Shown: positions 9,426 through 38,702 of the stretch, one piece after another | Position numbering within the stretch: position 1 is the stretch's first letter | Layout: the number at the start of each line of letters is the position of its first letter | NCBI GenBank assembly: GCA_015063165.1 | Contig: SUSZ01000002.1 | Location: 36,517 to 100,516, forward strand | Direction of reading: 5' to 3' | Length of the DNA: 64,000 nt | Source: Thermoplasmata archaeon | GTDB lineage: Archaea > Thermoplasmatota > Thermoplasmata > Methanomassiliicoccales > Methanomethylophilaceae | Made by a program: the position numbers and the translations under genes | Notes under the pieces: model-generated | What the model saw: the letters and a program-made list of their open reading frames with translations, nothing else | Told to the model about the DNA's origin: nothing | Databases searched by the model: none

Positions 9426-10439
9426 TCACATCCTTATGTTGATCTTGTGCCTGCAGCAGGAGCACCTGTCGCCGTCCAGCGATACGATGTCGACGAGGTA
9501 CCCGAGCCTTCTGATCACGGCCGTCCCGCATTCGGGGCAGTAGGTGTCGTCCGCGTCGTCGGTGAGGGTGTTCCCCACATATACGTAGTTCAGCCCGAGG
9601 TCCATCCCGAGCTCCCTGCAGCGCATGACGGTCTCCACGGGAGTCCATTGGACGTCCATCATCTCGTTGTCCGGGTGGAACCTGGTGAAATGGACAGGAA
9701 CATCCTCAGAGAGCTCGTTCTTCACCCATTCGCAGAACTTCGTTATCTCTTCGTCGGAGTCGTTGTATCCTGGTATGACCAGATAGGTCAACTCGAGGTG
9801 CACCCCGGACTCATGGACAATCTTGGCGCTCCTGAGGACGTCGGCCAGATGGGCTCCGCAGACCTTCATGTAGAACTCGTCGGTGAACCCCTTCACGTCT
9901 ATGTTCATGGCGTCGGTCACCGCGCACAGCTCCTTCAGGGGCTCCTCTGAGACCAGCCCGTTGCTGACAAGGATGAGGCCGAGGTCCGGATCGGTCTTCA
10001 TGACCTCCAGGATGTACTCGAACCAGATGACCGGCTCGTTGTACGTGAACGCTATCACGTCCTGCATCTCGTTGCGGCATAGCTGGACCAGTTCGTGGGG
10101 CCTCTCGTAGGTGGTGCGCTTCTTCCCGGACGGGAGCTGGGATATGGCGTAGTTCTGGCAGTGCTTGCAGGTCATGTTGCACCCGACGCCCCCTACGGAG
10201 AAGCATCTGGAGCCGGGCCGGTAATGGTACAGGGGCTTCTTCTCGACGGGATCCACGCATAAAGAGGATACTTTTCCGTAGGAATACGCGACCAGCATGT
10301 CCTCGTCGCCTCTGCGGGAGCCGCATCTCCCGTAGCTTCCGACCGCTATCCTGCAGTTGTGCGGGCACAGCCTGCAGATATAATGGTCCCCGTCCCTCTC
10401 GTAATACCTCGCTTCGATGCGTTCGTTAATAACGGCCAT
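9426..10439 (-). CDS. amrS: AmmeMemoRadiSam-system radical SAM enzyme
   Basis: 337 aa. N-terminal Cys cluster CRLCPHNCRI, radical-SAM CNMTCKHCQN (CX3CX2C), C-terminal CPECG...CSCC, which is typical of this pyruvate-formate-lyase-activase-like family. Confidence 0.8.
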   Translation of the reverse strand: MAVINERIEARYYERDGDHYICRLCPHNCRIAVGSYGRCGSRRGDEDMLVAYSYGKVSSLCVDPVEKKPLYHYRPGSRCFSVGGVGCNMTCKHCQNYAISQLPSGKKRTTYERPHELVQLCRNEMQDVIAFTYNEPVIWFEYILEVMKTDPDLGLILVSNGLVSEEPLKELCAVTDAMNIDVKGFTDEFYMKVCGAHLADVLRSAKIVHESGVHLELTYLVIPGYNDSDEEITKFCEWVKNELSEDVPVHFTRFHPDNEMMDVQWTPVETVMRCRELGMDLGLNYVYVGNTLTDDADDTYCPECGTAVIRRLGYLVDIVSLDGDRCSCCRHKINIRM

Positions 10440-22558: not shown

Positions 22559-22864
22559 TCACTCAATCTTCAGCAATCCTGAGAAGTTGGTCATGTCCAG
22601 AACGGCCTTGACCTCCTTGTTCACGTTGACCAGCTTGATCCCGTTCTTGTCTTCCATTAGCTCGTCCGCGTTCAGCAGGGACCTAAGCCCGGCCGACGAG
22701 ATGTACGACACGTTCGACATGTCGAATATCAGCGAGGCAGCTGATGCGGCCTCCCTCTCGACGACTTCGTCCAGCTCGGGAGCGGTGACGTAGTCGATGT
22801 TACCTTTGGGCGATATGGTGGTCATGCCGTCTTTCTTCTCTATTCCTATCTCCATGATGTTCAC
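22559..22864 (-). CDS. STAS-domain protein (SpoIIAA/RsbV-like anti-sigma-factor antagonist)
   Basis: 101 aa, GTG start. FDMSNVSYISSAGLRSLL carries the phosphorylatable Ser motif. GTGA overlap with the upstream gene stop. Confidence 0.85.
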   Translation of the reverse strand: MNIMEIGIEKKDGMTTISPKGNIDYVTAPELDEVVEREAASAASLIFDMSNVSYISSAGLRSLLNADELMEDKNGIKLVNVNKEVKAVLDMTNFSGLLKIE

Positions 22865-24672
22865 ATCTCCTTCTCTAACTTCAATATGTTGCGGTCGCCT
22901 TCGCGAACGTAAGAGACGTCGTCACATATCTTCTTCACCAGCATTATACCGAGCCCTCCCTTCCTACGCTCCTTGAAGCTGAGGATCGGATCAGGATCCT
23001 CGCGTTCGAGCGGGTTGAACGGGATTCCCCAGTCGGTGAACGTGATGCGGACAGCTCCGTTGATGACGTCCGTGGTGACCAGGACGTCCCCCTTCTCTTC
23101 CTCGTCCTTATACGCGTACATGTCGATGTTCGCATAGATCTCGGAGCAGGCGGTCTCCATCTCGGTGATGGTCCTGGCAGAGCATCCCGCCTCGCTCATC
23201 CTCTGCTTAATGCGTCCCATGACCTTCTCGTAGCCCTGGTTGTCCGCGCGGACCCTTATCCCTTCGTCCGGCTCTATGTCGTAGGGATGGGTGTACACGA
23301 TGGACATCATGGTCATGTCGTCGCTCTGGTCGGCGCTTCCCACGAAGTCCGACACGTCCGATTTCACCTTGGCGATGGTCTCGGCGGAACCTGCATCGGC
23401 TACGGACGAGAGCGACTTCTCGAGGCGATCCTCCTTGAACATGTCGCCGTCGGTCCTGGCGGCCTCCGTGACGCCGTCCGTGTAGAGGAAGATCCCGTCC
23501 CCGACGTCCAGGTGGAGATGATGCCTGTTGTAGCTCATCCTCTTTTTCCGTCCGAACACGAAATCCGGCTGGGACCTGAGCATCTCGTACTTACCGCCCT
23601 TGCGTATGAAAGGCGGGTTGTGTCCCGCGTTGACGTATGTCACGTCCCCGGTCCTGAGGTTTATGACCCCGATCCAGACCGTGACGAAGTACTTCATCGA
23701 GTTATTGGCGGAGAGCTCCCTGTTGGCCTTCTCCATGGCCTTATCCAGGTCTCCCCCGGCCTGCACGTTGGACCTTATCAGGGCCATGGATGTAGCCATG
23801 AACAGGGAGGCTGGGAGCCCCTTCCCGGAGACGTCGGCTATCACCACAGCGAGATGTTCGTCGCCTACCACGAAGCAGTCATAGAAGTCTCCGCCAACCT
23901 CTTTGGCGGCTGACATCGACGAGGACACGTCGCAGTAGGGCTTGCATGGGAAATCTGTGATGAGCAGGCCCTGCTGTATCCCTCTGGCGTTCGACATCTC
24001 CTTCTCTATACCTGTCCGCTCCCTCATCAGGTCGGACTGCCACTTGGAGTCGGTTATGCCGATCTTCACGGAATAGTAGCATGGGATGCAGACCAGGAGG
24101 TAGATGAGAAGGTCGACGGTGTAGAACGTCTTGATCAGCGAGAACAGCCTGTCCCATCTGGTCATGCCCTGGTACATCCCGATTATTATCGTTTCCAGGC
24201 CGTCATAGATGAGGAGCCCTGCGAGCATCAGCAATGCCCCTATGACGATCGTGCCCATTATGAAGTTGATGCGGTAGTAGAGACAGCTCGAGACCACCGG
24301 CAGAAGCATCAGGATCATCATCGAATAGTCCATCACGGCGATGATGGTGAAAGAGTTGATCAGTATCGATCCGATCAGGAGATATTTCGTCCACCAGTGG
24401 CTTCCTAAGAGAAAACAGATTATCGCGCTGGAAGCCATGAAGGCCATGGTAAGGTAAACGAGGTCTATGTAGTCGGCGACCCCGTAGCGTCCTTCCCCGG
24501 TGAAGATCCATGCAACGTTCATGACCAGGACCGCGACTATTATGATCTCGACGATCCTGTCCGCGCGTCCGTCTCTGTACTGGACTATCTCGTCCAGGAT
24601 TTCGCTGTCGGAAGGTTTCTTGAACATTGAACAGAAGCGCGTTCTCTTCGTTTCATCCGTGGTCTCGGCCAT
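22861..24672 (-). CDS. membrane-anchored PP2C (SpoIIE/RsbU-type) phosphatase fused to an RsbW/SpoIIAB-type HATPase serine kinase
   Basis: Start chosen at MAETTDETKR (24670-24672). The track ORF extends into the PPTase gene. About 6 TM helices are followed by PP2C motifs GGDFYD, VIADVSGKG, LYTDGVTEA, DDMTMM. A C-terminal HATPase_c-like region follows (ETACSEIYANIDMYAY...GGLGIMLVKKICDDV). Confidence 0.85.
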   Translation of the reverse strand: MAETTDETKRTRFCSMFKKPSDSEILDEIVQYRDGRADRIVEIIIVAVLVMNVAWIFTGEGRYGVADYIDLVYLTMAFMASSAIICFLLGSHWWTKYLLIGSILINSFTIIAVMDYSMMILMLLPVVSSCLYYRINFIMGTIVIGALLMLAGLLIYDGLETIIIGMYQGMTRWDRLFSLIKTFYTVDLLIYLLVCIPCYYSVKIGITDSKWQSDLMRERTGIEKEMSNARGIQQGLLITDFPCKPYCDVSSSMSAAKEVGGDFYDCFVVGDEHLAVVIADVSGKGLPASLFMATSMALIRSNVQAGGDLDKAMEKANRELSANNSMKYFVTVWIGVINLRTGDVTYVNAGHNPPFIRKGGKYEMLRSQPDFVFGRKKRMSYNRHHLHLDVGDGIFLYTDGVTEAARTDGDMFKEDRLEKSLSSVADAGSAETIAKVKSDVSDFVGSADQSDDMTMMSIVYTHPYDIEPDEGIRVRADNQGYEKVMGRIKQRMSEAGCSARTITEMETACSEIYANIDMYAYKDEEEKGDVLVTTDVINGAVRITFTDWGIPFNPLEREDPDPILSFKERRKGGLGIMLVKKICDDVSYVREGDRNILKLEKEM

Positions 24673-24733: not shown

Positions 24734-25405
24734 TCAGACGAGGTCGGAAAGGTCCACGAATCTGAGAGAAGGTTCGAATTCCGGATTCGTCGAGCATACG
24801 GCGCACCTGTATCCGTCGCCGGGGTCGTACTCCTTGAAATGGTATTCCCTGCCGTCGACGTGCTGCTCCACGCGTATGGGATCGCCGAGGTCGATGCGGA
24901 AGGAGTCAAGCTGGAGGGACATCCCAAGGCCTGTAGCCTTCATGAAGCTCTCCTTCAGGGTCCAGTACCTGCAGAACATCCTCGGCATCTCCTCGGTGCC
25001 CTGAAGGGCCGCTATGGCGTCGTATTCCGAGCCGTGGAAGAACCTCTCGGCCATGTCGAGCCCCGCGTACCTTATCGTCTCGACGTCGCATCCGACCTCG
25101 GAGTCGGAGACGGAGCAGGCCACGCGCTCCTCTGAGTGCGACAGGTTGAAGCGCATCCAGGAGCCTTCCAGGAACGGCTTACCGTTCTTTCCTTCTCCGA
25201 CGGATATCTTATCCGGATCCTCTCCCAGGTCCTCCATGGCTTTGCGAAGGAGGGTCCAGACGCCTATGCAGAGACGTCTGTCCTTCAGGAACAGGAATCT
25301 GTCCGCCTTCTCCCTGCGATACGCCGGCATCTGGCGGTACAGTGCGGAATAGACCGACGGTTCTTCCAAGCTATAGATGTCGGAATAGTATGTCCTGGTC
25401 TTCAT
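24734..25405 (-). CDS. Sfp-type 4'-phosphopantetheinyl transferase
   Basis: 223 aa. GKPFL...FNLSHSEERVACSVS...GCDVE and WTLKESFMKATG motifs. Confidence 0.85.
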   Translation of the reverse strand: MKTRTYYSDIYSLEEPSVYSALYRQMPAYRREKADRFLFLKDRRLCIGVWTLLRKAMEDLGEDPDKISVGEGKNGKPFLEGSWMRFNLSHSEERVACSVSDSEVGCDVETIRYAGLDMAERFFHGSEYDAIAALQGTEEMPRMFCRYWTLKESFMKATGLGMSLQLDSFRIDLGDPIRVEQHVDGREYHFKEYDPGDGYRCAVCSTNPEFEPSLRFVDLSDLV

Positions 25406-25950
25406 GTCCTGCTCCGTTGTCGGAATCTCGGTTCCTAGGCAAGAGGATTAAGGCGAACCACACGAAATAGATTTCAGGACGGGGAATCACTCCATATGAT
25501 CGGACTATTGTATTTTTACTGCAACCTGGTGGTTCTGAGCTATTCCGAGAAGGATACGCGTAAGCTCTTCGCCCGGATCACGGGCCACGACAACTACGGG
25601 GAGCTCGACGTCGTCGACAACGATCCCGAGGACCTGGTGTTGAGTATAGCCTGCATCCACGACGGCGTATGCGGCGGGAAAAAGCCCTGCCGTCCCGTAG
25701 AGCACGTCTTTCCATGGGGGAGGCCGCTTCTCTGTTCGGAGTTCAGGACATGGGCCCGCTGATGTTGGACCGCTTGCTATCGTTCGGGACTCCCGAGGAG
25801 ATACGCAGGCTCCTTTCGGACGGGACCGAGGATCCGGTCCTCTGCCGTGTCGGAGGCAGGGCTGATAAACGAGCCGAAGAAGCAGATCGATAATGATTGC
25901 TCCTTCGGGTAACAGGCAGGGCAGGAGGGATTCCCGCCCCGCCAAGGGTT

Positions 25951-28900
25951 TCATCTGAAGAATCTCAGGGACTTCAGCGTCTTGAACGCCTTGTCGATGT
26001 ATCCGTCGGATATTATCGGCCACGAGAATCCCAGCCTGTACAGCGCCTTCACGGTGTAGGAGTCGTCCGCCGGCACGAACCTGCGGGTCTCTCCGGCGTT
26101 TCCGAGGTAGCTTATCAGACCTGAGACGTACTCCCCGTTGGCCTCGTCCTTCATGGCCTCCATGAACCTGCGGTCGAACTCCTTCCTGGAGACGACCTCG
26201 ACGGGCATTCCGTTGTCCCTCATGACCTTCAGGACGTTCGCCATGTGCACCTTGTGGCAGTTGTTGACGTGGAACACGGTGAACTGCTCCGGGGTTCCGG
26301 CGAGGATCACGACCGCTTTGGCGACCATGTCTATCGGCGAGAACTCCACCTCGGTGTCCATGTCGGTCACGGAGAAGAATCCCAGCTTCACATAGGACTT
26401 CATCTGCTTCATGAAGGCGTTGGTGTTGAAGTTGATCTGGAACTCTCCGTCGCTGTCGCGGCTCATAAGGTTCCCGACGCGGATGATCTTCGCCTTCAGG
26501 CCGTCCGGAATGGCTTTTATCATCTCCTCCTCGGCCATGAACTTGGAGTGGGCGTACTTGTTGTCCAGGTTCTGTCCGAAGTCGAGCTCGTTCTCCTTCA
26601 GCTTCCTGTCCTCGGGGATGCTGCCGTTCACGGATTCTCCAGCCACGCTCTCGGTCGAGATCTGGACCAGCATGGAGCCGGTGCTCTCGGCGACCTTGAT
26701 CAGGTTCTGGACCCCTCCGACGTTGACCCTGTCGATGGAGTCGTCGGCCGCGAAGTGCTTGACCACGGCGGCGCAGTTGATGATCGTGTCGAACTCGCAG
26801 CCGTCCAGCTTCTCCAGGAGGTTCTGGTCGGTGATGTCCCCGTCTATGATGGTGACATCCTTCAGGGCGTCCTCGGAAGCCATCCCGCCGAAGTAGTACA
26901 TGAACATCGTCTTGACTCTCTCCTCGGATGTCTGGCCCTTTCCGCTCCTCACCAGGCAGTACACGTGCTTGGCGTTCCTCCTCAGGAGCTCGAACAGGAC
27001 GTGGGCGCCCAGGTATCCGGTCGCTCCGGTCAGGAGTATCCTGCGGGGGCTGTGGGAGCTTATGGAGTCCAGGCTGCTCTCGACGTTGGCCGCCAGGGGG
27101 CTCTCGTCTATGGTGTCCCTCTTCTCCTCCTTGCTGGCTTCCCCGAGCGTGCCGATGAATCTTGCCAGGGCCTCGGGCGAGGGGTTGTCGAAGACGTTCT
27201 TGTAGACTATCGGGAACCCGGAGTTCATACAGTTGAGGACGAGCTTGGACGCGGAGATGGACGTTCCGCCGATCTCGAAGAAGTTGTCGTCGGCGTTGAC
27301 CTTCTTCAGGCCGAGGACGTTCGCGAATATCTCGCAGAGCTTTGTCTCCACCGGGTCCGAAGGCTCCCTTCCGGCCTTCCTGGGCTCGGAGGACGGCTCG
27401 GGAAGCCTCCTCCTGTCCACCTTGCCGTTGACCGTCATCGGGATGGAATCCAGCTGGATGAAGTGTGCGGGGACCATGTACGGGGGCTTGGTGCTCCTGA
27501 TGAAATCTGCGAGTCCGTTGAAGTCAACGGGGGAGTCCGATACCACGTAGGCTGTGATGGACTTCCCTCCAGCGGGGTCGTCGAAGGCCTTCACGGTGGC
27601 GTCTTTTATGCCCTGGTAGCTGCGGACGGCTCCTTCCACCTCCCCGAGCTCGATCCTGAACCCGCGGACCTTGACCATTCCGTCGCGTCTGCCGATGTAG
27701 TCGATGTTGCCGTCGGGAAGCAGGCGGACCACGTCTCCGGTCCTGTACAGGCGGTCGAAGCCGGGTTCGTCCGAGAACGGATTCCTGGTCACCGTCTTGG
27801 CGGTCTTCTCGGGGTTGTTGAGGTATTCCCTGAACACCTGGGGGCTGCTGATGCACAGCTCTCCGCAGCATCCGACCGGGACGATCCTGTCGCTCTTGTC
27901 CAGGACGTACAGCCTCACGTTGGCGTTCGGCTTTCCGATCGGGAGCAGGGGGCTGTCGTCCTTCACTATGAACGTGGTGACGTTCACGGTGCATTCGGTC
28001 GGTCCGTAGATGTTGTAGAAGTCCACCCATTCGGGCGGGTTCAGCGGCACCAGCCTCTCCCCTCCCGCCATGAACTTCTTAAGGGATCTGCACTTGGTGC
28101 TCTCCATGAACATCCTCCCCATCTGGGTGGTCATGAATCCGTGGGTGATTCCGTTGCTGATGAAGTATCTGTCCACCTCGGCCAGGTCCTTGCGCATGTC
28201 CTCGGGGATTATGTGCACGGTTGCACCGGCGGAGAGCGAAGAGTGGAGGTCCATCATGCACGCGTCGAACCCGTAGCTGGCGTAGGAGGCGTATCTGGAC
28301 GTGCTCGTGAGACCCACCTCGGGGATCATCCAGTTCAGGAAGCTGGCTATGTTCCTGTGCTCCAGGACGCATCCCTTGGGGGTCCCGGTGGTTCCGGATG
28401 TGTACAGGATTATGAAGGCGTCCTCGGGGGAAGGCGCCAGGGATGTCACGTCGGGACGCTTGCCGGTGCAGAGCCCGTCGATCTCGTCCGTGTACAGGAC
28501 GTCTCCCTGATACCCGGAGACGAGTCCGCGGAGGGACCTGTCGGCTATCAGCAGCCTGACTCTGGAGTCCTGCATCATGAACAGCAGGCGCTCTTCCGGG
28601 TATGTCGGGTCCAGAGGCTGGTAGGCCGCTCCGGACTTCACGACTCCCTCGGCGGCCACCACCATGTACACCGACCTGGGAACCAGAACGGCGACGTACT
28701 CGTCCTTGCCGATCCCCTTCGAGTGGATGTAGTCTGCTATGTAGTCCGTCTTCTCGTCCAGCTCTCCGTAGGTCAGGCTGTCGTCGAGATGAACCACGGC
28801 CAGGTTGTCAGGGTGCTCCCTGGCGTTCCTCCTGAACATGTCCACCACGGTGACGGACCTGTCGAACGGGACGTCAGTGTCGTTCATCCTGTCCACTGTC

Positions 28901-31900
28901 GCTATGGTCTTGCTGTCGGTCAGGCTGATCTCGCCGAGCGTCGTGCACGTCGGGAATTCGGATATGGCCTTGTCGAACGACCTGGTGAAGAACTCGATGA
29001 ACTCGGAGGTGAACCTGTCCTTGTCGAACTCCACCATGTACGCGAGCTCGTCGCCGTATTTAGCAACCTGGAACAGTATGGGCTCCTTCTCGCTGGACAG
29101 GCTGACCTGGATCGATTCAGACGGCTTCCCGCAGAACCTGTCGAAGCTGAAGCCGTCGCCCTGGTAGACGAACATCACGTCCGCCTTGACCTCCAGCTCG
29201 CGGCTGACCTCGGCGAAGGAGTAGATGTCGTTGGCCATGCTGTCCAGGATCTGGTCGCTTATCTTCTCGGACAGGCGCAGGGGCGACATGGCGTCGTCGG
29301 AGACGTCGCAGAGGACCGGGAGGGTCTTGACGTACATCGAGACCGAATCCATCGTCCTGGAGTCGCTCCTTCCGTTGTAGATCGTGGTGAATATCGAGTG
29401 CTCGCTGCCGTTGTACTTCGCGAGGACGTAGCCGAAAGCGGCGCACATCAGGCCGTTCATGGTGATCCCGGCTCTCTCGCAGCGCTCGGAAAGCTTCCTC
29501 CCTAGCGAGCCATCGCTCCTCATCAGGAACGTGCTCTCGGCGTTCTGGTCGGGGCGATATCTGTCGCCTTTGGGGAGGGAGTCCCTGTCGTAGCCGGCCA
29601 GGAGTTCGTCGTAGTACTTCTTGGCGCCAGCCAGGGCCTCCGGGGTTCTCTCGTCGGCCTCCTTGAGGGAGGTCTCGAACCCGCTGAACCTCTCGGCCTC
29701 GGGCTTCTCCCCGGCGTATGCCTTGGAGATGTCGTCCGTCAGGACCTTCATGGAGGTTCCGTCGCTGATCATATGGTGCATCTCCAGGAACAGGTACTCC
29801 TTGTCGGCGTGGATGAGCTTGATGCGGAACAGCCTCGATCCCATGAGCCGGAACGGCTTGGCCAGCGTGGGCATCAGGGAGTCGATGGAATCGGCTGTGA
29901 TCTCCTCGATCTCGTCCGCGGAGAACGTCGGGAGGCCCTTCCTGATCAGGCGGATGTCGCCCTTGTCGTTCATGGCCAGCGTGGTCATCATGAACGGGTG
30001 GGCGTTTACCGCCTCGGCGATGGCGGACTTCAGCCTGTCCTTGTCGATGGAGCTGTCGTAGCTGATCAGCAGAGGGATGTTGTACGTGGTGCTGTCCGGC
30101 CTGGCCATGCACTCCACGAAAACGCCTTCCTGGGATTTGGTGAGCGGATAGTCGTCCTGGACCTCGTACGTCTTGGCCGGGACGGAGCTCTCTATCAGCC
30201 TCTCCAGCTTCTCGATGGTGCTGTTGTCCTTGACGTCCTTGGACTTGAACGGGATCCCGAACTCGTCCGAAAGTAGCACGTTGAAGCGGATGCTCCCTAT
30301 AGAAGTGAGCCCGGCCTGGAAAAGGTCCGTCTCTATTCCGAACCTGTCGGTTCTCAGCACCTCGGACGCTATCCTGAATATGCGCTTCTGGATGTCGGTC
30401 TTCGGAGGCGTCGCCTTGCCGAAGTCCATCGTCGGGACTGGGAGCTTTCTCTTGTCGACCTTGCTGTTCACGTTGAGCGGGATGCTGTCCAGCTGCATCG
30501 TCACGGCCGGGACCATGTAAGGAGGCTTGGTCTGGAGGATGAAGCTCTCCAGAGCCTTGATGTCGACCTTTCCATCGGATACGACGTATGCGGCGATCTG
30601 CTTCCCTCCGGCGGGGGCGTCGAACGCCTGGACTGTGGCGTCCTTGATCCCCTTGAACGCGCGGATGGCCCTTTCCACCTCTGTGAGCTCTATCCTGAAT
30701 CCGCGGACCTTGACCATTCCGTCGCGGCGGCCGATGTAGTCGACGTTGCCGTCCGGGAGGAGACGAACGATGTCGCCGGTCTTGTACATCAGGTCATGGT
30801 CTGGACTGTCGGAGTAGGGGTTGTCCACAAGCACCGAAGCGGTCTTGTCGGGGTTGTTCAGGTACCCTCTGAACACCTGCGGCCCGCTTATGCAGAGCTC
30901 TCCGCATGCTCCTGTTGGGACGATCCTGCGGTCCTTGTCCAGCACGTAGACCCTCACGTTGGTGTTCGGCTCCCCTATCGGCAGGAGGGGGCTGTCGTCC
31001 TTCACAAGGAACGATGTGACGCTGACGGTGGTCTCCGTAGGTCCGTACAGGTTGTGGAATTCGAGCCAGTCGGGCGGGGTTATCGGCACCAGGGCCTCTC
31101 CGCCCGTGGAGAAGTGCTTCAGAGATCTGCATTTGGTGCCCTCGATGAACATCCTTCCCATCTGGGTGGTCATGAAGCTGTGCGTCACCTTGTTGTCGAT
31201 AAAGAATTGGTCCATCGCGGCCAGGTCGCTGCGGATCTCGTTGGGTATCACCGCGATGCAGGCTCCGTATGCCAGGGTGACCATCATGTCCATCATGCAG
31301 GCGTCGAAGCCGAAGCTGGCATAGGTGGCGTATCTGGAGCCGGGACCCAGGCCGATCTTCTTGCCGTACCAGTCCGCGAAGGCAGCCATGTTCCTGTTCT
31401 CTATCACGCAGCCTTTTGGCGTCCCGGTGGTTCCAGACGTGTACAGGATGGCGAACGCGTCCTCGGGCGAGGGGGACAGAGGCTTTGCATCCGGAGCGTC
31501 TCCTGCGAACAGACTGTCGAACTCGTCCGTGTACAGGATCTCGCATTCGTGCCCGCTCACCAGCCTCGCCAGCGACCTGTCCGCGATCAGCAGCTTCACG
31601 CCGGAGTCCTGCATCATGAACAGCAGGCGCTCCTCCGGGTACGTCGGGTCCAGAGGCTGGTAGGCCGCTCCGGACTTCACGACTCCCATCGCGGCTATCA
31701 CCATGGTCGCGGACCTGGGGACGAGGACGGAGACGAACTGCTCCTTCCCGATCCCCTTCGATGAGATGTACGATGCGATATGGTCGGTTATCCTGTCCAG
31801 CTCCCCGTAGGAGATCATAGCGTTATCGAACAGGACGGCGTCGGCATCGGGATCATCTTTCGCTCTGGCTCTGAACAAATCGACTATAGTCCTACTCCTG

Positions 31901-34875
31901 TCGTATTCGGAATCGGTCGAGTTAACCTTCTTGACAAGGTCCAGATCATCCTCTCCAGCAACCGTGACATCCCTGAGGGTGGGCGCCTCGAGGAACCCTT
32001 CCGCGCACCTCTCCAAGGTGGACAGGAAGCTCTCCATCATCTCCTTCGAATACACAGATGCGTCATATTCGATGTCCATCAGGAACCCGTCCTTCATCGG
32101 GTATACCTGCACAGTCAGGGGGTTCTTCACGTCCTTTATCTCCATCTGTGAGTCCAGGACGCTCTCGTCCTCCAGTATCCCCTGGTAGGCGAACAGCACG
32201 TCCGATGTGACTCCCATCCTGGAGCTGATCTCCGAGAACGGGAAGATGTCGTTCTGCATCGAAGCTATCAGCTGGTCTCCGGTGCGTCTGACCAGGGCCC
32301 CTGGGCTCTCGTCCAGGTCGAACCTGAATACGACAGGGAGGGTCTTGACCAGCATACCTACGAGGTGGGCGGTCTTCCCGCCCTTCCTTCCGGTGTACAC
32401 GGTGGCATGGCAGGCGTTGTCTGTGCAGTTGAATCTGGACAGCGCGTATCCCATAGCCGATTGGAAGAATGCGTTCTCCGTGGTTCCGGCGGATTCCACG
32501 AACGCCTTGATCTTTTCAGGAGGGACGTCAAGCTTCGACCTCAGGTGGCCTTTGATCCTCTTCTCTCCGTAGACGTCCCTCTGGATGAGCGAGGTACCGT
32601 CCACGTCCGAGAGGAGCTCGTAGTAGTACTTCTCGGCACGACTATAGTCTCCCGAGCTCATGCGTCCTGTCTCCTCCTCGGAGAGGTCGAACATGGTGAA
32701 CGTCTCTGCTACTGGCTCTCCGCCGCCGAGCGCCGTTCCCAGATCGTTCATCAGGACCAGGCTGGAGGAGCCGTCGAACATTATGTGGCTGAAGTCCAGC
32801 AGCAGGGTCTCCGCGTCCCCGGTGTCAAAGACGACTATCCTGTACAGCTCCTTCGACATGTCGAACGGCTTCACGAAGGATTCGCGGTACGCCTCCAGGT
32901 CGGCTTCGGAGCCTTCCATGCGCTCTATCCTGACTTCCGCGTCCGGATGCGGCACCATGCACATCTCTCCCTTGGTGTCGGGTTCGATGGTGCATTTCAG
33001 TCCAGGGTGGGCCTCGATGACCTTTCTCACTATAGTCTCCAAGCTCTTTCCGGAAAGCCGGTCCTTCTCGAACCTGGCCTGCATCGGGAGGTTGTACATC
33101 ACGGTCTCGGGGTCGCTGTAGCACGCCTGGTACACCCCCATCTGCGACCTCGTGAGCAGGTACCTGTCCTTGAGGGCCTTCTTCTCGATCGGAGCCGAGG
33201 TGGCCTTCTCCACGAGCTTGGAGATTATCTCGTCGGATACGGAGGCTATCGAGCATCCGCTAAGCATGCCGGCCACGTCAAGGTCCACTCCGAACCTTCC
33301 CATGACCTCCGATGTGAACTTGATCGCGGTGAGGGAGCTGAGTCCGCAGTACACGAGATTCTCGTCGTAGCGGAAGTCGTCCCTTTCGGTGAGGCTCTTC
33401 AGAATCTCCCTCACGCCTTTGGTGACCGCGTTCTCCTCGAAGTCCGTGGGTCCGGCTGTGACGGCGGAGCCGCTTCCGGGCTCGGTGGGGTCCGGGAGGG
33501 ATTTCCGGTCGATCTTTCCGCTGGGGTTCAGCGGGAGCCTGTCCATGCGGACGAGATAGGCTGGAACCATGTATCCAGGCAGCTTGCTCTTGAGGTAGTC
33601 GCGTACGGCCTCCACGGGGATGTCCGTCGCCGCGGCGTAGTACGCGCACAGGAAGGTCTGGTCGTCGGTGCCCTTGAAGTCCTTGACCGCGGCCTGGACG
33701 ATCCCGGGAAGGGTCATCATCACTCCGGAGATCTCTCCGGGCTCCACGCGCTGGCCGTTTATGTTCACCATCCAGTCGTTGCGCTCCATGTACAGCAGGT
33801 TCCCGTCCTCGAGGCGTCTTCCGATGTCCCCGGTGCGGACCATCGTGTCGTGTCCGTCGCGGTCCTTGAACGGGTTGGGGACGAACGCCTTGGCGGTGGC
33901 TTCGGGAAGGTTGAGGTATCCGTCGGAGAAGTGCCCTGTGAAGCAGATCTCGCCCTCCTCAGCCTCGTTCCCGTTCTCGTCCAGGATGTAGGCGCATACT
34001 CCCTTCAGCGGCTTTCCCAGAGGGGTCTTGTCGTACGCCTTGTCGAGGAAGAATCCGGTGACCATGCTGCAGGTCTCGGACGATCCGTAGCCGTTCACGA
34101 TGGTGAAGTCGTCGGACCATACCTTCACGGCGCGCTCGCCGCCTATGAGGACCAGACGGAGCGTCTTCCTTTTCTGGCGGTAGTATGGGAGCATGGCCGG
34201 CGCTATGAATGTCAATGTGATCTCGTTGTCGGAGTTGAATTCGGAGAGCTTGTTGAGATTTATGCGGATGTCGGCCGGGACGATGTAGTCAGGGCATCCC
34301 AGAGCCAGGAGATTGATGTTGATGGTGGTTCCGACCACGAACGTGAACGCAGCAGGGTTGGCGAATCTGTCGTTCTCTTGGATTTTGAAGAGGTCGTCGA
34401 TCCTGTCCACATAGGAAGATATGGACAGATGCGAATGCACCACCCCTTTGGGCCTGCCGGTGGAGCCGGACGTGTAGATTATGAACGCTATGTTCTTCGG
34501 CGACGGCGTCACGGGGTCGCAGTCCAGCGTCTCGGCCCCGATCCTCTCCAGGTATTCGGGGGTCACGCGGATCTTTGCCTTGCAATCCTCGGCGATGTAC
34601 GCCTTCCTGTCCTCCGGATAGGAGCTGTCGGAAGGGACGAAGAACCCTCCCAGCATCCATGCGCCCAGCATGAATCCCATGTACTCCTTGCATCTGGGGA
34701 GCTCTATCACCACGCCGTCCCCTCTGCAGAATCCGTCCTTCTTCAAGGTCGCCGCCACGCGGTACGAGTAGCTGCGCAGCTCTTCGTACGTGAACGAGCC
34801 CTTGTCGGTCCAGACGGCGGTCTTGTTCGGAGTGGATTCTGCATTGTCCAAAATCATCTCGAGTATGTTCCGCAT
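25951..34875 (-). CDS. nonribosomal peptide synthetase, three modules, A-T-C-A-T-C-A-T-R
   Basis: 2974 aa. Three AMP-binding domains (YTSGSTGRPKG / YTSGTTGTPKG twice; YGPTE; TGD; GK(I/V)D(R/K)). Three carrier domains (CGLSSL, AGLTSI, GGTSIS). Two condensation domains (SHIMFDG, HHMISDG). A C-terminal thioester reductase (TGATGYLG, YAHSK). Confidence 0.97.
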   Translation of the reverse strand: MRNILEMILDNAESTPNKTAVWTDKGSFTYEELRSYSYRVAATLKKDGFCRGDGVVIELPRCKEYMGFMLGAWMLGGFFVPSDSSYPEDRKAYIAEDCKAKIRVTPEYLERIGAETLDCDPVTPSPKNIAFIIYTSGSTGRPKGVVHSHLSISSYVDRIDDLFKIQENDRFANPAAFTFVVGTTININLLALGCPDYIVPADIRINLNKLSEFNSDNEITLTFIAPAMLPYYRQKRKTLRLVLIGGERAVKVWSDDFTIVNGYGSSETCSMVTGFFLDKAYDKTPLGKPLKGVCAYILDENGNEAEEGEICFTGHFSDGYLNLPEATAKAFVPNPFKDRDGHDTMVRTGDIGRRLEDGNLLYMERNDWMVNINGQRVEPGEISGVMMTLPGIVQAAVKDFKGTDDQTFLCAYYAAATDIPVEAVRDYLKSKLPGYMVPAYLVRMDRLPLNPSGKIDRKSLPDPTEPGSGSAVTAGPTDFEENAVTKGVREILKSLTERDDFRYDENLVYCGLSSLTAIKFTSEVMGRFGVDLDVAGMLSGCSIASVSDEIISKLVEKATSAPIEKKALKDRYLLTRSQMGVYQACYSDPETVMYNLPMQARFEKDRLSGKSLETIVRKVIEAHPGLKCTIEPDTKGEMCMVPHPDAEVRIERMEGSEADLEAYRESFVKPFDMSKELYRIVVFDTGDAETLLLDFSHIMFDGSSSLVLMNDLGTALGGGEPVAETFTMFDLSEEETGRMSSGDYSRAEKYYYELLSDVDGTSLIQRDVYGEKRIKGHLRSKLDVPPEKIKAFVESAGTTENAFFQSAMGYALSRFNCTDNACHATVYTGRKGGKTAHLVGMLVKTLPVVFRFDLDESPGALVRRTGDQLIASMQNDIFPFSEISSRMGVTSDVLFAYQGILEDESVLDSQMEIKDVKNPLTVQVYPMKDGFLMDIEYDASVYSKEMMESFLSTLERCAEGFLEAPTLRDVTVAGEDDLDLVKKVNSTDSEYDRSRTIVDLFRARAKDDPDADAVLFDNAMISYGELDRITDHIASYISSKGIGKEQFVSVLVPRSATMVIAAMGVVKSGAAYQPLDPTYPEERLLFMMQDSGVKLLIADRSLARLVSGHECEILYTDEFDSLFAGDAPDAKPLSPSPEDAFAILYTSGTTGTPKGCVIENRNMAAFADWYGKKIGLGPGSRYATYASFGFDACMMDMMVTLAYGACIAVIPNEIRSDLAAMDQFFIDNKVTHSFMTTQMGRMFIEGTKCRSLKHFSTGGEALVPITPPDWLEFHNLYGPTETTVSVTSFLVKDDSPLLPIGEPNTNVRVYVLDKDRRIVPTGACGELCISGPQVFRGYLNNPDKTASVLVDNPYSDSPDHDLMYKTGDIVRLLPDGNVDYIGRRDGMVKVRGFRIELTEVERAIRAFKGIKDATVQAFDAPAGGKQIAAYVVSDGKVDIKALESFILQTKPPYMVPAVTMQLDSIPLNVNSKVDKRKLPVPTMDFGKATPPKTDIQKRIFRIASEVLRTDRFGIETDLFQAGLTSIGSIRFNVLLSDEFGIPFKSKDVKDNSTIEKLERLIESSVPAKTYEVQDDYPLTKSQEGVFVECMARPDSTTYNIPLLISYDSSIDKDRLKSAIAEAVNAHPFMMTTLAMNDKGDIRLIRKGLPTFSADEIEEITADSIDSLMPTLAKPFRLMGSRLFRIKLIHADKEYLFLEMHHMISDGTSMKVLTDDISKAYAGEKPEAERFSGFETSLKEADERTPEALAGAKKYYDELLAGYDRDSLPKGDRYRPDQNAESTFLMRSDGSLGRKLSERCERAGITMNGLMCAAFGYVLAKYNGSEHSIFTTIYNGRSDSRTMDSVSMYVKTLPVLCDVSDDAMSPLRLSEKISDQILDSMANDIYSFAEVSRELEVKADVMFVYQGDGFSFDRFCGKPSESIQVSLSSEKEPILFQVAKYGDELAYMVEFDKDRFTSEFIEFFTRSFDKAISEFPTCTTLGEISLTDSKTIATVDRMNDTDVPFDRSVTVVDMFRRNAREHPDNLAVVHLDDSLTYGELDEKTDYIADYIHSKGIGKDEYVAVLVPRSVYMVVAAEGVVKSGAAYQPLDPTYPEERLLFMMQDSRVRLLIADRSLRGLVSGYQGDVLYTDEIDGLCTGKRPDVTSLAPSPEDAFIILYTSGTTGTPKGCVLEHRNIASFLNWMIPEVGLTSTSRYASYASYGFDACMMDLHSSLSAGATVHIIPEDMRKDLAEVDRYFISNGITHGFMTTQMGRMFMESTKCRSLKKFMAGGERLVPLNPPEWVDFYNIYGPTECTVNVTTFIVKDDSPLLPIGKPNANVRLYVLDKSDRIVPVGCCGELCISSPQVFREYLNNPEKTAKTVTRNPFSDEPGFDRLYRTGDVVRLLPDGNIDYIGRRDGMVKVRGFRIELGEVEGAVRSYQGIKDATVKAFDDPAGGKSITAYVVSDSPVDFNGLADFIRSTKPPYMVPAHFIQLDSIPMTVNGKVDRRRLPEPSSEPRKAGREPSDPVETKLCEIFANVLGLKKVNADDNFFEIGGTSISASKLVLNCMNSGFPIVYKNVFDNPSPEALARFIGTLGEASKEEKRDTIDESPLAANVESSLDSISSHSPRRILLTGATGYLGAHVLFELLRRNAKHVYCLVRSGKGQTSEERVKTMFMYYFGGMASEDALKDVTIIDGDITDQNLLEKLDGCEFDTIINCAAVVKHFAADDSIDRVNVGGVQNLIKVAESTGSMLVQISTESVAGESVNGSIPEDRKLKENELDFGQNLDNKYAHSKFMAEEEMIKAIPDGLKAKIIRVGNLMSRDSDGEFQINFNTNAFMKQMKSYVKLGFFSVTDMDTEVEFSPIDMVAKAVVILAGTPEQFTVFHVNNCHKVHMANVLKVMRDNGMPVEVVSRKEFDRRFMEAMKDEANGEYVSGLISYLGNAGETRRFVPADDSYTVKALYRLGFSWPIISDGYIDKAFKTLKSLRFFR
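25954..27054 (-). other. NRPS terminal thioester reductase (R/TD) domain
   Basis: aa ~2608-2974. Rossmann motif LLTGATGYLG (2614-2623), SDR catalytic YAHSK (2774-2778). No thioesterase domain is present. Confidence 0.85.
27151..27363 (-). other. NRPS carrier domain 3
   Basis: aa ~2505-2575. FFEIGGTSISASKL, predicted Ppant serine aa 2539. Confidence 0.8.
27397..28869 (-). other. NRPS adenylation domain A3
   Basis: aa ~2003-2493. LYTSGTTGTPKGC, YGFDACMMD, YGPTECT, YRTGD, NGKVDRRR. Confidence 0.8.
28564..28648. repeat. intragenic near-identical tract (module 3 copy)
   Basis: 85 nt, 83/85 identical to 31603-31687 (offset 3039 nt, equal to 1013 codons). Encodes GVVKSGAAYQPLDPTYPEERLLFMMQDS in both modules. 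Confidence 0.9.
28891..30168 (-). other. NRPS condensation domain C2
   Basis: aa ~1570-1995. LTKSQEGVF, canonical HHMISDG (aa 1700-1706). Confidence 0.8.
30181..30402 (-). other. NRPS carrier domain 2
   Basis: aa ~1492-1565. LFQAGLTSIGSIRF, predicted Ppant serine S525 of that block (aa 1525). Confidence 0.75.
30430..31908 (-). other. NRPS adenylation domain A2
   Basis: aa ~990-1482. LYTSGTTGTPKGC, FGFDACMMD (Asp1191 present), YGPTETT, YKTGD, NSKVDKRK. Confidence 0.8.
31603..31687. repeat. intragenic near-identical tract (module 2 copy)
   Basis: Partner of 28564-28648. Confidence 0.9.
31921..33183 (-). other. NRPS condensation domain C1
   Basis: aa ~565-985. LTRSQMGVY start, active-site variant SHIMFDG (aa 696-702). 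Confidence 0.75.
33211..33444 (-). other. NRPS carrier (T/PCP) domain 1
   Basis: aa ~478-555. LVYCGLSSLTAIKF, predicted Ppant serine S514. Confidence 0.75.
33490..34875 (-). other. NRPS adenylation domain A1 (loading module; boundaries approximate)
   Basis: aa 1-462. Motifs FIIYTSGSTGRPKGV, NGYGSSETC, VRTGDIG, PSGKIDRK. The residue 37 positions after the A3 lysine is Val180, not Asp. Confidence 0.8.
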
Positions 34876-34879
34876 ATGC

Positions 34880-35209
34880 TCATGTCCCGATGTGTGATGT
34901 TATCACCACATAGTAGTAAAACCCTAACGCATGGATTTTTTTTGAAAGAATGTCACATTCGGAATGCTTTTTCAAGATGATCTCGGACACTCCTTTCCCA
35001 TTGATTCCGAGGGCAATCCATGCTGGCCCTTTATCCAGAGGCTCCGAGACGTATCCTTCTGAAACCATCTGCTTCAGGTCGTGGTGTCCGAGGAACTCGG
35101 CCAAGGGGCATCTCTCATGCTCTTCCCGAAGCACCTCGGGGGGTGTAGGGGTACCGCCCACAAGCCTTCTGAAGTAGAGCATTCCGTCGGTACTGATACG
35201 TGCATACAC
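34880..35209 (-). CDS. doubtful small ORF abutting the NRPS start
   Basis: 109 codons with a GTG start. Its TGA stop lies 4 nt before the NRPS ATG. The segment ...LKQMVSEGYVSEPLDKGPAWIALGINGKG looks loosely winged-helix-like. The region is AT-rich, with a T8 run inside and a T9 run just upstream, so this could be a degraded gene or only leader sequence. Confidence 0.25.
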   Translation of the reverse strand: MYARISTDGMLYFRRLVGGTPTPPEVLREEHERCPLAEFLGHHDLKQMVSEGYVSEPLDKGPAWIALGINGKGVSEIILKKHSECDILSKKIHALGFYYYVVITSHIGT

Positions 35210-35286
35210 GTTTTTTTTTGAGCCTTAGAGAGGTGTTCGTCATTCTTGCGACAGGGTCTCCGATGTCTGACGTAATAATAGTTCCT

Positions 35287-35316
35287 GGAAAAAATTAGGA
35301 AATATGAATTTTTTCC
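35287..35316. promoter_or_regulatory. perfect 10-bp inverted repeat in the divergent NRPS/ATPase intergenic region
   Basis: GGAAAAAATT (35287-35296), a 10-nt spacer, then AATTTTTTCC (35307-35316). Flanking CCTGG on both sides. Confidence 0.6.
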
Positions 35317-35389
35317 TGGGAATAAATTAACAATATACCAACTTTTATACAAAATTAATTTATACTAATTCGTTTGATATAAATATGTC

Positions 35390-36769
35390 ATGGAAAGGAA
35401 GATAATGCGGGATCTGAAGCTCTGGAAGGAGGGCGGAAGGAGAGAAGCCCTTCTGATCAAAGGCGCAAGGCAGGTGGGGAAGACGTACGTCGTAGACGAG
35501 TTCCTGTATTCTGAATTCCCGGTCTTTTTGAAGATAGATTTCCACGAGCGTCCGGATCTCAAGGGAATATTCGAAGGGGACCTTTCCGCGGATTCGCTGA
35601 TATCCAAGATGGAGCTTATGGTTCCCGGGTTCAGGATGGTGCCTTTCCAGACTGCTATATTCTTGGACGAGATACAGTTCTGTTCCAACGCCAGGGTCTC
35701 CTTGAAATATCTGGCATCGGACGAGCGCATACGCGTGATAGCTTCGGGCTCCCTTCTGGGGTTGAACTATTCCAAGGTCGATTCCTATCCTGTGGGATAT
35801 GAGAGGACCATAGTCCTTCATCCGATGGATTTCGAGGAGTTCCTGTGGGCCGTAGGCATAGAGAAGGAGGCTATCGATTCCATGAGGGCCCGTATATCGG
35901 AGCGGAAGCCGCTGGGAAAAGCATTGGTGGATGCAATGGAGTCCTATTACCGCATCTACGTGGCCGTAGGCGGGATGCCCGAAGCGGTATCCGAGTATCT
36001 GAAGTCAAACGACTACCGTGCAGCCAGGGAGGTCCAGAAGAAGATCGTCGAGGGGTATCGCAACGACATCGGCAAGTACTCCCATGCGAAAGACCGCAAC
36101 CGTATCTTCGCCGTTTTCGATTCGGTCCCGTCGCAGCTGTCGAGGGAGAACAAGAAGTTCATGTACTCGAAGGTCGGCGGAACCAAGCCTGCGACGTACG
36201 ATTCCTATGCTGCGGCCCTGCAATGGCTCACGGATGCGGGCGTCTGTCTGAAGTGCGTTCGTCTTAACGATCCGAATCTTCCGTTAGAGACGGGAGCCGA
36301 TCCGGAGGCCTTCAAGCTGTATATCAACGACACCGGCCTTCTGGCATCCATGATGTCCGAGGATGTGGCGCATGCCATCCTCACGGGAGACGTTCGTACG
36401 AACAAGGGCTCCGTGATCGAGAACGCGGTGGCTTCAGCGTTGGAGTCCAAGGGGCATAGGCTCTATTACTTTTCCAGCAAGAACTTCGAAATAGATTTCA
36501 TCACGGTGATGAGAGGAGCCGTCGCGGCGATCGAGGTGAAGTCCGGAAACAACCGGAGGTCGAAGTCCTTGGACTCCATGAAGGATAAGTATGGGACGAA
36601 ACGCAGGATGAAGTTCGAGATCACTGACATAGCGGTCACGGAGGACGGGGTCGAGCATTATCCCCTGTTCTGCTGCCAGTTCCTGGACAGCCTCTACGAA
36701 CCATACGGCACGGTCTCAGGGATGCCCGACGCGGGAGAGGTCAACGATCTGCTGAGGAAGGCGTCTTGA
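35390..36769 (+). CDS. COG1373-type AAA ATPase with DUF4143-like C-terminal domain (paralog 2)
   Basis: 459 aa. Walker A GARQVGKTY, Walker B FLDEIQ. C-terminal EIDFITVMRGAVAAIEVKSG. Confidence 0.85.
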   Translation: MERKIMRDLKLWKEGGRREALLIKGARQVGKTYVVDEFLYSEFPVFLKIDFHERPDLKGIFEGDLSADSLISKMELMVPGFRMVPFQTAIFLDEIQFCSNARVSLKYLASDERIRVIASGSLLGLNYSKVDSYPVGYERTIVLHPMDFEEFLWAVGIEKEAIDSMRARISERKPLGKALVDAMESYYRIYVAVGGMPEAVSEYLKSNDYRAAREVQKKIVEGYRNDIGKYSHAKDRNRIFAVFDSVPSQLSRENKKFMYSKVGGTKPATYDSYAAALQWLTDAGVCLKCVRLNDPNLPLETGADPEAFKLYINDTGLLASMMSEDVAHAILTGDVRTNKGSVIENAVASALESKGHRLYYFSSKNFEIDFITVMRGAVAAIEVKSGNNRRSKSLDSMKDKYGTKRRMKFEITDIAVTEDGVEHYPLFCCQFLDSLYEPYGTVSGMPDAGEVNDLLRKAS

Positions 36770-36810
36770 GGATGTCCGTCCGGTTCTTTGCGGATGGATG
36801 GCGGATCCGC

Positions 36811-36854
36811 TGACCCTACCAATATCCTACCAATACATTACCAATTTGGTAGGG
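36811..36854. repeat. CCTACCAAT-unit repeat cluster upstream of Fic (left direct repeat plus palindrome)
   Basis: The sequence is TGACCCTACCAATATCCTACCAATACATTACCAATTTGGTAGGG. It has three direct (C/T)TACCAAT units. The last unit forms the palindrome TACCAA-T-TTGGTA (36839-36851). Confidence 0.9.
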
Positions 36855-36883
36855 TATTTCTATCTTGAGAGCGTTGCAATACC

Positions 36884-38158: not shown

Positions 38159-38165
38159 CGTGCAA

Positions 38166-38189
38166 TGACCCTACCAATACCCTACCAAT
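38166..38189. repeat. right direct repeat flanking Fic
   Basis: TGACCCTACCAATACCCTACCAAT is 23/24 identical to 36811-36834. It starts 8 nt after the Fic stop codon. Confidence 0.9.
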
Positions 38190-38702
38190 GCCTTGTTGAT
38201 TCGGCCGGGTGTCAACCTATACGAATAGCAGTCCTAGGCCGAAGGGGTTCGGACGGACTATCGTCGTAGAGCATGGTCATCCGAAACAGAGGCGTTCGCA
38301 GGGCTGTGAGAAGGTGAGGAAGATCGGCTCGGGGGCGTTCTCTCCGGCATCGTCTTCATGTCGATCGGCGGAAGCGAGCTCTTTCAGACGTCCAAGAACC
38401 TCTTCGGGAAGGCCTTCGAGGGCTCCGACGGGGTCCTCCGGGAGCTCTGAGAGAAACAGGGCCGTCGGCATCCCGGCGGCTCTCCTTACTCTATCTGGAC
38501 GCTATAAACTATGTGATGCGTTGATTAAAGGATCACGGCAATACTTATTAAATAAAGTCTAAACGATTCAATAGAAAAAAGTGAAAGTTGGATGGAAGTG
38601 ACATGCACTTGATAAATCCTGGATGTGGTCACAACCTTCCACTTTAATGCGGATGGCAGTATAGTGCTGCTCTATCTCAAAGTCGATCATGGAGGATATG
38701 CA

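Follow-up and report, generated by a model that had tools for sequence, protein, structure and literature searches.

A membrane-bound PP2C phosphatase/RsbW-type kinase fusion and its STAS partner in a peptide synthetase operon of Methanomethylophilaceae archaea

The three domain families of the RsbU/RsbV/RsbW and SpoIIE/SpoIIAA/SpoIIAB sets of Bacillus subtilis, a PP2C phosphatase, a serine kinase of the RsbW/SpoIIAB type and a STAS protein, recur with apparently the same phospho-serine logic in two adjacent genes of a Thermoplasmata archaeon. These genes lie in a 64,000-nucleotide stretch of contig SUSZ01000002.1 (positions 36,517 to 100,516), which is referred to as the window. The first gene encodes a membrane protein in which the phosphatase and the kinase are fused, and the second encodes the STAS protein. 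The B. subtilis sets are not orthologues of this pair, as the equivalog scores are far too low, and in the archaeon there is no sigma factor to release.

As in Rv1364c from Mycobacterium tuberculosis, the PP2C domain of the fusion protein is directly followed by an RsbW-type kinase in one polypeptide, although the identity is only ~20%. Rv1364c is a cytosolic protein with a PAS input domain and a STAS domain fused at the C-terminus, working in a host with sigma factors, whereas the present system has an input region of six transmembrane (TM) helices, a STAS protein encoded by a separate gene, an archaeal host and a location in a non-ribosomal peptide synthetase (NRPS) operon. Phosphatase and kinase also follow one another in HsbR from Pseudomonas aeruginosa and CrsR from Shewanella oneidensis, which have the order REC-PP2C-kinase and set the phosphorylation of a separate STAS protein, HsbA or CrsA; phosphorylated HsbA binds the diguanylate cyclase HsbD, an enzyme, so the outputs of STAS proteins need not be sigma factors (PMC6482189). 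The receiver input of HsbR and CrsR is fed by a phosphorelay, and their kinase domain also sequesters RpoS, whereas here the input is membrane-bound and the host has no sigma factor. SypE from Vibrio fischeri, with the domain order kinase-REC-PP2C, is a response regulator within a polysaccharide locus, unlike the fusion in the NRPS operon. It is a dual serine kinase/phosphatase for the STAS-only protein SypA (Ser56), and unphosphorylated SypA acts on an unknown target that is not a sigma factor (PMC8256260).

Two archaeal precedents are relevant. Anderson et al. (2009) described a SpoIIAA/SpoIIAB/SpoIIE-like trio in Methanomicrobiales as intriguing, given that archaea lack sigma factors and that no targets could be deduced (PMC2686161). 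The role of such anti-sigma and anti-anti-sigma sets in archaea has been a standing question ever since. An earlier note on this DNA presented the pair as a bacterial module in an archaeon with a puzzling output; this description holds, but the puzzle itself was already published in 2009 (PMC2686161). Like the Methanomicrobiales trio, the present system is an archaeal partner-switch set in a host without sigma factors (PMC2686161), but the trio consists of three separate genes with no reported link to an NRPS, whereas the present system is fused, membrane-bound and NRPS-linked. Leahy et al. (2010) reported that two serine phosphatases, an anti-sigma antagonist and a MatE exporter are encoded around the NRPS gene mru0068 of Methanobrevibacter ruminantium, that an antagonist and an anti-sigma kinase, together with a serine phosphatase, belong to a 4'-phosphopantetheinyl transferase (PPTase) cluster of this archaeon, and proposed that these genes sense the environment, regulate the NRPS and are of bacterial origin (PMC2812497). 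M. ruminantium M1 (mru0066-0071 and mru0512-0516) is thus a rumen methanogen with partner-switch genes beside NRPS and PPTase genes, similar to the rumen or gut methanogen described here; compared by description only, it differs in belonging to another archaeal order, in its separate phosphatase and kinase, and in an NRPS that ends in a thioesterase.

The genome note on strain ISO4-G1 mentions an NRPS of unknown function (PMC4824259), and our literature search found nothing on an NRPS-linked partner switch specifically in Methanomassiliicoccales or Methanomethylophilaceae. Hence the bifunctional PP2C-kinase design, the sets in archaea without sigma factors (2009) and the occurrence of partner-switch genes near NRPS and PPTase genes (2010) are already known. 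What is new, as judged from sequence comparison, is the two-gene, membrane-anchored version that forms an obligate part of a predicted operon with a reductase-terminated NRPS across Methanomethylophilaceae, one cultured strain among them.

The fusion protein and its STAS partner

The pair and its parts have the following coordinates in the window.

22861..24672, minus strand: membrane PP2C phosphatase/RsbW-type kinase fusion, 603 aa + stop, from an ATG
23965..24672, minus strand: N-terminal region, residues 1-236, six TM helices and then a long linker helix (AlphaFold and hydropathy)
23287..23955, minus strand: SpoIIE/RsbU-type PP2C (PPM) phosphatase domain, ~residues 240-462 (PF07228 and fold matches)
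22864..23250, minus strand: RsbW/SpoIIAB-type GHKL serine kinase domain, ~residues 475-603 (PF13581 and PDB matches)
22559..22855, minus strand: single-domain STAS protein of the anti-sigma-antagonist type, 98 aa + stop (PF01740, TIGR00377)
22694..22696, minus strand: codon for the serine predicted to accept the phosphate, Ser54 in the numbering of the 98-aa form and the second Ser of ISSAGL (alignment)

The open reading frame (ORF) of the fusion gene extends upstream beyond the ATG, to a TTG at 24927. A database protein (P0001) that is 100% identical to the fusion protein is likewise 603 aa long and occurs on contigs of up to 154 kb. The earlier note had proposed a 603-aa protein with about six TM helices, a SpoIIE/RsbU-type PP2C domain and an RsbW-type kinase, and this architecture is supported by the ORF, Pfam, hydropathy and AlphaFold; the motifs quoted there (GGDFYD, DVSGKG, YTDGVTEA and DDMTMM) are all present in the translation. 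The profiles named for the three domains, PF07228, PF13581 and PF01740, were all matched, with SpoIIE (PF07228) covering residues 271-457 of the fusion protein (E 9.3e-43) and HATPase_c_2 (PF13581) residues 482-600 (E 1.2e-17); E-values of this size, like that of the STAS match below, are far from anything expected by chance.

Six helices at residues ~36-58, 66-89, 95-114, 116-132, 135-159 and 172-~200 are found in agreement by hydropathy and AlphaFold. In the AlphaFold2 model (mean pLDDT 82.9, from an alignment of 27 sequences) the helix limits are 22-58, 66-89, 95-114, 116-132, 135-159 and 172-236, so that the sixth helix runs on as one long helix into the phosphatase. The loops between the TM helices are very short (1-12 residues), and because the six-TM domain is almost without external loops, the sensing of any signal would be confined to the membrane itself or its surface. 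A Pfam scan gave no family match for the TM region and revealed neither a REC nor a PAS input domain in the fusion protein, which has the six TM helices at its N-terminus instead.

The best solved relative of the fusion protein is 3KE6, the RsbU+RsbW unit of Rv1364c, both by sequence (phmmer E 2e-17, query residues 234-549) and by fold (Foldseek E 2e-20 over 367 columns). Foldseek matched the PP2C domain to SpoIIE, RssB, SiaA and Rv1364c, and the kinase domain matched the SpoIIAB structures 1tid/1th8 (~2e-4) as well as the RsbW domain of 3KE6. A non-kinase fold for the C-terminal domain, which would have spoken against the earlier assignment, is contradicted by the PF13581 match and by the matches to 3KE6 and SpoIIAB. 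With the NCBIfam equivalogs for SpoIIE, SiaA, RsbW and SpoIIAB only sub-threshold matches were obtained (TIGR02865 scored 52.6 vs a cutoff of 490.8, NF003144 33.6 vs 145, and TIGR01925 24.1 vs 135). The fusion protein therefore falls within these superfamilies without being an orthologue of the named proteins, and identification as SpoIIE or RsbW proper was rejected, the scores being far under the equivalog cutoffs.

Conservation was read from an alignment of 27 homologues with identities down to 31%. In the PP2C domain D262 and D265 (GGDFYD), D280, G283 and K284 (ADVSGKG), T398-D399-G400 and D451-D452 are invariant, and so are E511 and N515 (N-box) and D547 and G549 (G1) in the kinase domain, while the G2 residues G572, G573 and G575 are kept in at least 90% of the homologues.

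The STAS protein matches PF01740 with E 1.2e-15 and the anti-sigma antagonist family TIGR00377 with 69.2 bits vs a cutoff of 53.45. It was rejected as SpoIIAA proper (TIGR02886 34.2 vs an equivalog cutoff of 114.75). Its start deserves comment, since the earlier note had described a 101-aa STAS protein with an ISSAGL motif, translationally coupled to the fusion gene through a GTGA overlap. The STAS assignment and the motif are borne out, but 101 aa is only the length of the longest ORF. Gene callers gave 98-aa STAS calls on independent contigs, starting at the ATG three codons past the GTG, and a conserved M-x-I N-terminus begins all eight STAS orthologues. As judged from these comparisons, the real start is probably the ATG at 22855, which gives 98 aa and lies 5 nt past the stop codon of the fusion gene (TGA at 22861-22863). 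The GTG is then probably not the real start, the proposed coupling by overlap would not hold, and the two genes are tightly spaced, probably without overlap.

Ser54 is invariant in 11 STAS proteins, while the preceding Ser53 is Ala in the locus L095 described below, and it aligns with the Ser of DSAGL in TM1442 (1sbo) and with that of SSAGL in 4hyl. No paralogues of the STAS, PP2C, kinase or TM domains were found elsewhere within the 64-kb window. The sequences are most naturally read as encoding one protein that would both phosphorylate and dephosphorylate a single STAS substrate. The six-TM domain would perceive a signal in or at the membrane, and in the model the helix formed by TM6 and the linker could pass this signal on to the phosphatase. 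The RsbW-type kinase would phosphorylate Ser54 of the STAS protein and the PP2C domain would take the phosphate off, a cycle that we infer because the catalytic residues are intact and invariant and the serine is invariant as well. The signal would thus set the balance between kinase and phosphatase, and hence the phosphorylation state of the STAS protein, which would carry the output.

The operon and its relatives in archaea and bacteria

NCBI names for identical and related proteins are either Thermoplasmata archaeon or Candidatus Methanomethylophilaceae archaeon, and genes for the archaeal ribosomal proteins L18e, L13 and S9 adjoin the cluster, in support of the archaeal host assumed earlier. 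The guanine-plus-cytosine (GC) content of the cluster is 0.55-0.60 and not set apart from the rest of the window. On one strand the gene order is NRPS, PPTase, fusion gene, STAS, with the first two genes as follows.

25951..34875, minus strand: NRPS, 2974 aa, A-T-C-A-T-C-A-T-R, first gene of the conserved cassette
24734..25405, minus strand: PPTase, 223 aa (Pfam: ACPS 2.8e-18 and AASDHPPT_N)

Pfam finds AMP-binding three times, Condensation twice, PP-binding and a terminal NAD_binding_4 reductase (residues 2615-2855) in the NRPS, and from this tri-modular layout a tripeptide aldehyde or alcohol is predicted to be released. The PPTase serves to prime NRPS carrier domains.

The context of the pair was compared in nine archaeal lineages including the window, over which the identity of the fusion protein falls from 100% to ~35%. 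The lineages other than the window are listed here with identities to the window proteins.

L004: fusion identity 68%; NRPS, PPTase, fusion gene, STAS
L006 and L007: fusion identity 51-54%; NRPS, fusion gene, STAS
L009: fusion identity 38%; NRPS, fusion gene, STAS, PPTase
L012 and L014: fusion identity 36-39%, second Methanomethylophilaceae clade; NRPS, fusion gene, STAS, PPTase
L095: fusion identity 36%; fusion gene, STAS, PPTase, with the NRPS as a remnant only
L097: STAS identity 76%, cultured strain LGM-RCC1, complete genome; NRPS, 171-aa membrane protein, fusion gene, STAS

It is clear from this comparison that the ORFs of the fusion protein and the STAS protein are intact throughout (9/9) and that an NRPS gene ending in a reductase (2368-2979 aa) precedes them in eight of the nine lineages. 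The NRPS stop codon overlaps the start of the fusion gene by 4 base pairs (bp) in five lineages (L006, L007, L009, L012 and L014), and the STAS gene begins 1-13 nt past the fusion stop in every lineage. A PPTase gene, which may precede the fusion gene or follow the STAS gene, is part of the cassette in the window, L004, L009, L012, L014 and L095. The surroundings of the conserved block change from locus to locus, and no sigma-like or other conserved regulator gene was found in the nine loci, where conservation of neighbours is limited to the NRPS and the PPTase, plus a membrane protein of ~160 aa in L012, L014 and L097. In a neighbour-joining (NJ) tree built from 377 columns of the PP2C+kinase region of 72 taxa, the fusions from archaeal contexts form one clade in 99 of 100 bootstraps. 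Collectively, the comparison indicates that a predicted operon of NRPS, fusion gene and STAS, mostly with PPTase, is kept throughout a monophyletic Methanomethylophilaceae clade.

The only locus without an intact NRPS gene, L095, carries a 70-aa ORF (9780-9992) directly 5' of the fusion gene, the last 24 residues of which match the C-terminal end of the L014 NRPS at 50% identity. We take this as a sequence trace of a deletion that removed the NRPS and left the fusion gene, STAS and PPTase intact, and the remnant indicates that the linkage to the NRPS is ancestral to the whole archaeal clade. A stand-alone reductase after the PPTase in L095 was also considered as a remnant of the NRPS R-domain and was rejected, being without similarity to the NRPS.

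The NRPS, the fusion protein and the STAS protein diverge in parallel across the archaeal loci. The STAS protein is the best-conserved component of the cassette, with 90/77/66/55% identity to the window protein, against 80/70/58/49-47% for the NRPS and 68/51/38/36% for the fusion protein, and the TM region taken alone is the least conserved, with identities from 51% to 22%. This sequence pattern fits a STAS protein that is constrained on several surfaces, together with a TM sensor that adapts.

Some variation among the cassettes was observed. The NRPS of L012, L014 and L097 is of a C-A-T-C-A-T-R version with 2368-2402 aa. The ~160-aa protein of the same three loci (L012 2374-2859, L014 2351-2821, L097 7693-8208) has an N-terminal hydrophobic, apparently membrane-anchoring segment, its copies are 28-39% identical, and it is encoded upstream of the NRPS gene or between the NRPS and fusion genes. 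The L012 and L097 copies, which were scanned, belong to no Pfam family, and the protein is absent from the window cassette. A 113-aa metagenome protein (P0258) has the start of an NRPS condensation domain joined to the last 40-odd residues of an archaeal STAS protein, and reflects either a deletion or an error of assembly.

Fused PP2C-kinase homologues are very common in the databases (7997 matches at E <= 1e-5). From at least 596 confirmed stretches in species-representative genomes, 80 loci were kept for comparison of the gene context, and the numbers given for these loci apply to the matches listed. The 80 loci are all bacterial and nearly all from gut or rumen organisms (for example Oscillospiraceae, Lachnospiraceae, Atopobiaceae and Treponema). 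Most of them align to the archaeal protein only from ~residue 217 on, so their input domains differ from the archaeal one. A STAS gene is located within a few kb at ~50 of the 80. A Clostridia homologue (P0087) has neither a STAS nor an NRPS gene adjacent.

A bacterial parallel is an operon of Ruminococcus sp. JE7B6 (L065 168-11221, NZ_CP162391.1), where genes for an NRPS, a MatE exporter, a TIM-like protein, a STAS protein and a TM-HAMP-PP2C-kinase protein follow one another on one strand; three of the junctions are 4-bp overlaps and the fourth is a 14-nt gap. This operon is a cultured bacterial counterpart of the archaeal cassette. A second NRPS-linked bacterial case is L033 from an uncultured Firmicute, with the NRPS gene divergently oriented. 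The locus L096 (2831-6716) is apparently bacterial, having an IS605-type transposase gene nearby, and is a different elaboration of the module, with a fusion homologue, an HD_4 protein, a 391-aa fusion of STAS and an APH-type kinase, and a second STAS protein.

As the family is otherwise spread in gut and rumen bacteria, we infer a transfer from bacteria. The simplest history compatible with the sequences would be one transfer into an ancestor within Methanomethylophilaceae, followed by long vertical divergence.

Possible outputs of the switch

The operon context with NRPS and PPTase is the most informative clue to the output of the pair. Since sigma factors do not occur in archaea and Ruminococcus has a similar cassette, the switch would most likely control formation of the NRPS product. 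Taken as a whole, we consider it about an even chance that the pair is a membrane-gated STAS phospho-switch which was acquired with the NRPS cassette and controls its product, probably by acting post-translationally on a protein of the cassette. The output would then be control over the production of a short peptide aldehyde or alcohol by the NRPS, and our guess is that the STAS protein or the kinase domain binds the NRPS or the PPTase. A cassette enzyme is guessed as the target because three lineages independently pair partner-switch genes with NRPS/PPTase genes, because all functional residues are kept in a host without sigma factors, and because no regulator gene is conserved nearby.

Several observations weigh against this reading. 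The adjacency could mean only co-transfer and co-expression. An NRPS gene is near only 2 of the 80 bacterial loci among the matches listed, so the NRPS link belongs to the archaeal clade and not to the family. In L095 the module has outlived the NRPS, as would be expected if the target were not the NRPS, or if the deletion were recent. The gaps in the window are 61 nt between PPTase and fusion gene and as much as 545 nt between NRPS and PPTase. Finally, any bacterial sister group of the archaeal clade has a bootstrap value of only ~3% in the NJ tree, and the closest bacterial STAS protein (P0240, 47%) is found in an unrelated context without an NRPS.

Some of these points could also be explained by a real switch with its output outside the cassette, where candidates would be a transcription regulator of the archaeon, a pathway of general stress or a process at the membrane, in which case the linkage to the NRPS would reflect joint acquisition and shared transcription only. 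Such an outside target is possible, and of the alternatives it survives best, but we regard it as unlikely. It would agree with the Methanomicrobiales trio, which is unfused and without a reported NRPS link (PMC2686161), with the retention of fusion gene and STAS in L095 without an intact NRPS, and with the fact that most bacterial fused homologues among the matches listed are not beside an NRPS; furthermore the archaeal clade is old, with identities down to 34%, leaving time to recruit a target from the host. It is more difficult to reconcile with the constant order of NRPS, fusion gene and STAS across the archaeal lineages, five of which have the 4-bp overlap, amid changing surroundings, with an NRPS association that Ruminococcus and M. 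ruminantium evolved or acquired on their own, and with a block that has no conserved adjacent regulator gene. If the target is indeed elsewhere, the pair is an ordinary horizontally acquired signalling module.

The reading in which the switch controls the NRPS product can be carried further. In this bolder form the pair is a portable controller of the NRPS that is independent of transcription, in which Ser54-dependent binding of the STAS protein or the kinase domain to the PPTase, or to a carrier domain or the reductase domain of the NRPS, gates the synthesis of the peptide aldehyde on a membrane signal. A structural precedent for contact between a STAS domain and a carrier protein is the STAS domain of Escherichia coli YchM bound to the acyl carrier protein. 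In this detail the proposal is tentative, and it is rather unlikely to be correct in every part. If true, it would be the first partner-switching system with a biosynthetic megasynthase as output, and it would explain how a bacterial module still works after transfer into archaea without sigma factors.

A further variant dispenses with the STAS protein as the carrier of the signal. Here the kinase and phosphatase would act directly on a serine of the NRPS, for example in a carrier domain, or on the PPTase, and the STAS protein would be only a competitive pseudo-substrate or a regulator of the kinase. Each carrier domain of an NRPS has a modifiable serine that is needed for activity and would offer such a target, and both enzyme domains are intact and encoded in one predicted operon with the NRPS and the PPTase. 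To our knowledge, however, the kinases of the RsbW/SpoIIAB type characterised so far phosphorylate STAS proteins, and the STAS protein is the best-conserved component with an invariant acceptor serine, as expected of a true substrate and signal carrier; we therefore find direct action on the enzymes doubtful. That the pair is a non-functional passenger brought in with the NRPS cassette, purposeless without a sigma factor, is hardly credible, for although the family is bacterial in type and archaea lack the sigma factor that is its canonical partner, this is contradicted by the invariant catalytic residues, with the PP2C aspartates, the STAS serine and the N, G1 and G2 boxes of the kinase conserved in a clade diverged to ~34%, and further by ORFs that are intact in all nine lineages, by survival of the module after the NRPS deletion in L095 and by a GC content that is not anomalous.

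Returning to control of the NRPS product as the preferred reading, the Methanomethylophilaceae clade gives a concrete handle on the output of archaeal partner switches, as it offers a two-gene switch in a small operon with the NRPS and the PPTase as obvious candidate targets. The switch is also present in the cultured Methanomassiliicoccales strain LGM-RCC1 (PMC10804542), and the old target question becomes experimentally approachable. If the NRPS machinery is the target, this would be a case of post-translational control of non-ribosomal peptide synthesis crossing the boundary between bacteria and archaea, and it would bear on the use of peptide aldehydes, a class that includes protease inhibitors, by gut and rumen methanogens.

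Surroundings of the cassette in the window

The gap between PPTase and NRPS in the window (25406-25950) contains an 88-aa antisense ORF (25496-25762, plus strand) that is called by gene callers and matched no Pfam family. The corresponding NRPS-PPTase junction in L004, with a 68%-identical fusion protein, is only 19 nt long, so the 545-nt gap looks like an insertion specific to the lineage of the window.

Just upstream of the NRPS gene, the region 34000-38200 has a GC content of 0.52-0.54, which is under that of its flanks. It encodes an AAA_14/DUF4143 ATPase (35390-36769, plus strand) and a Fic/DOC protein (36884-38158, plus strand), and may be a variable or mobile segment at the border of the cassette.

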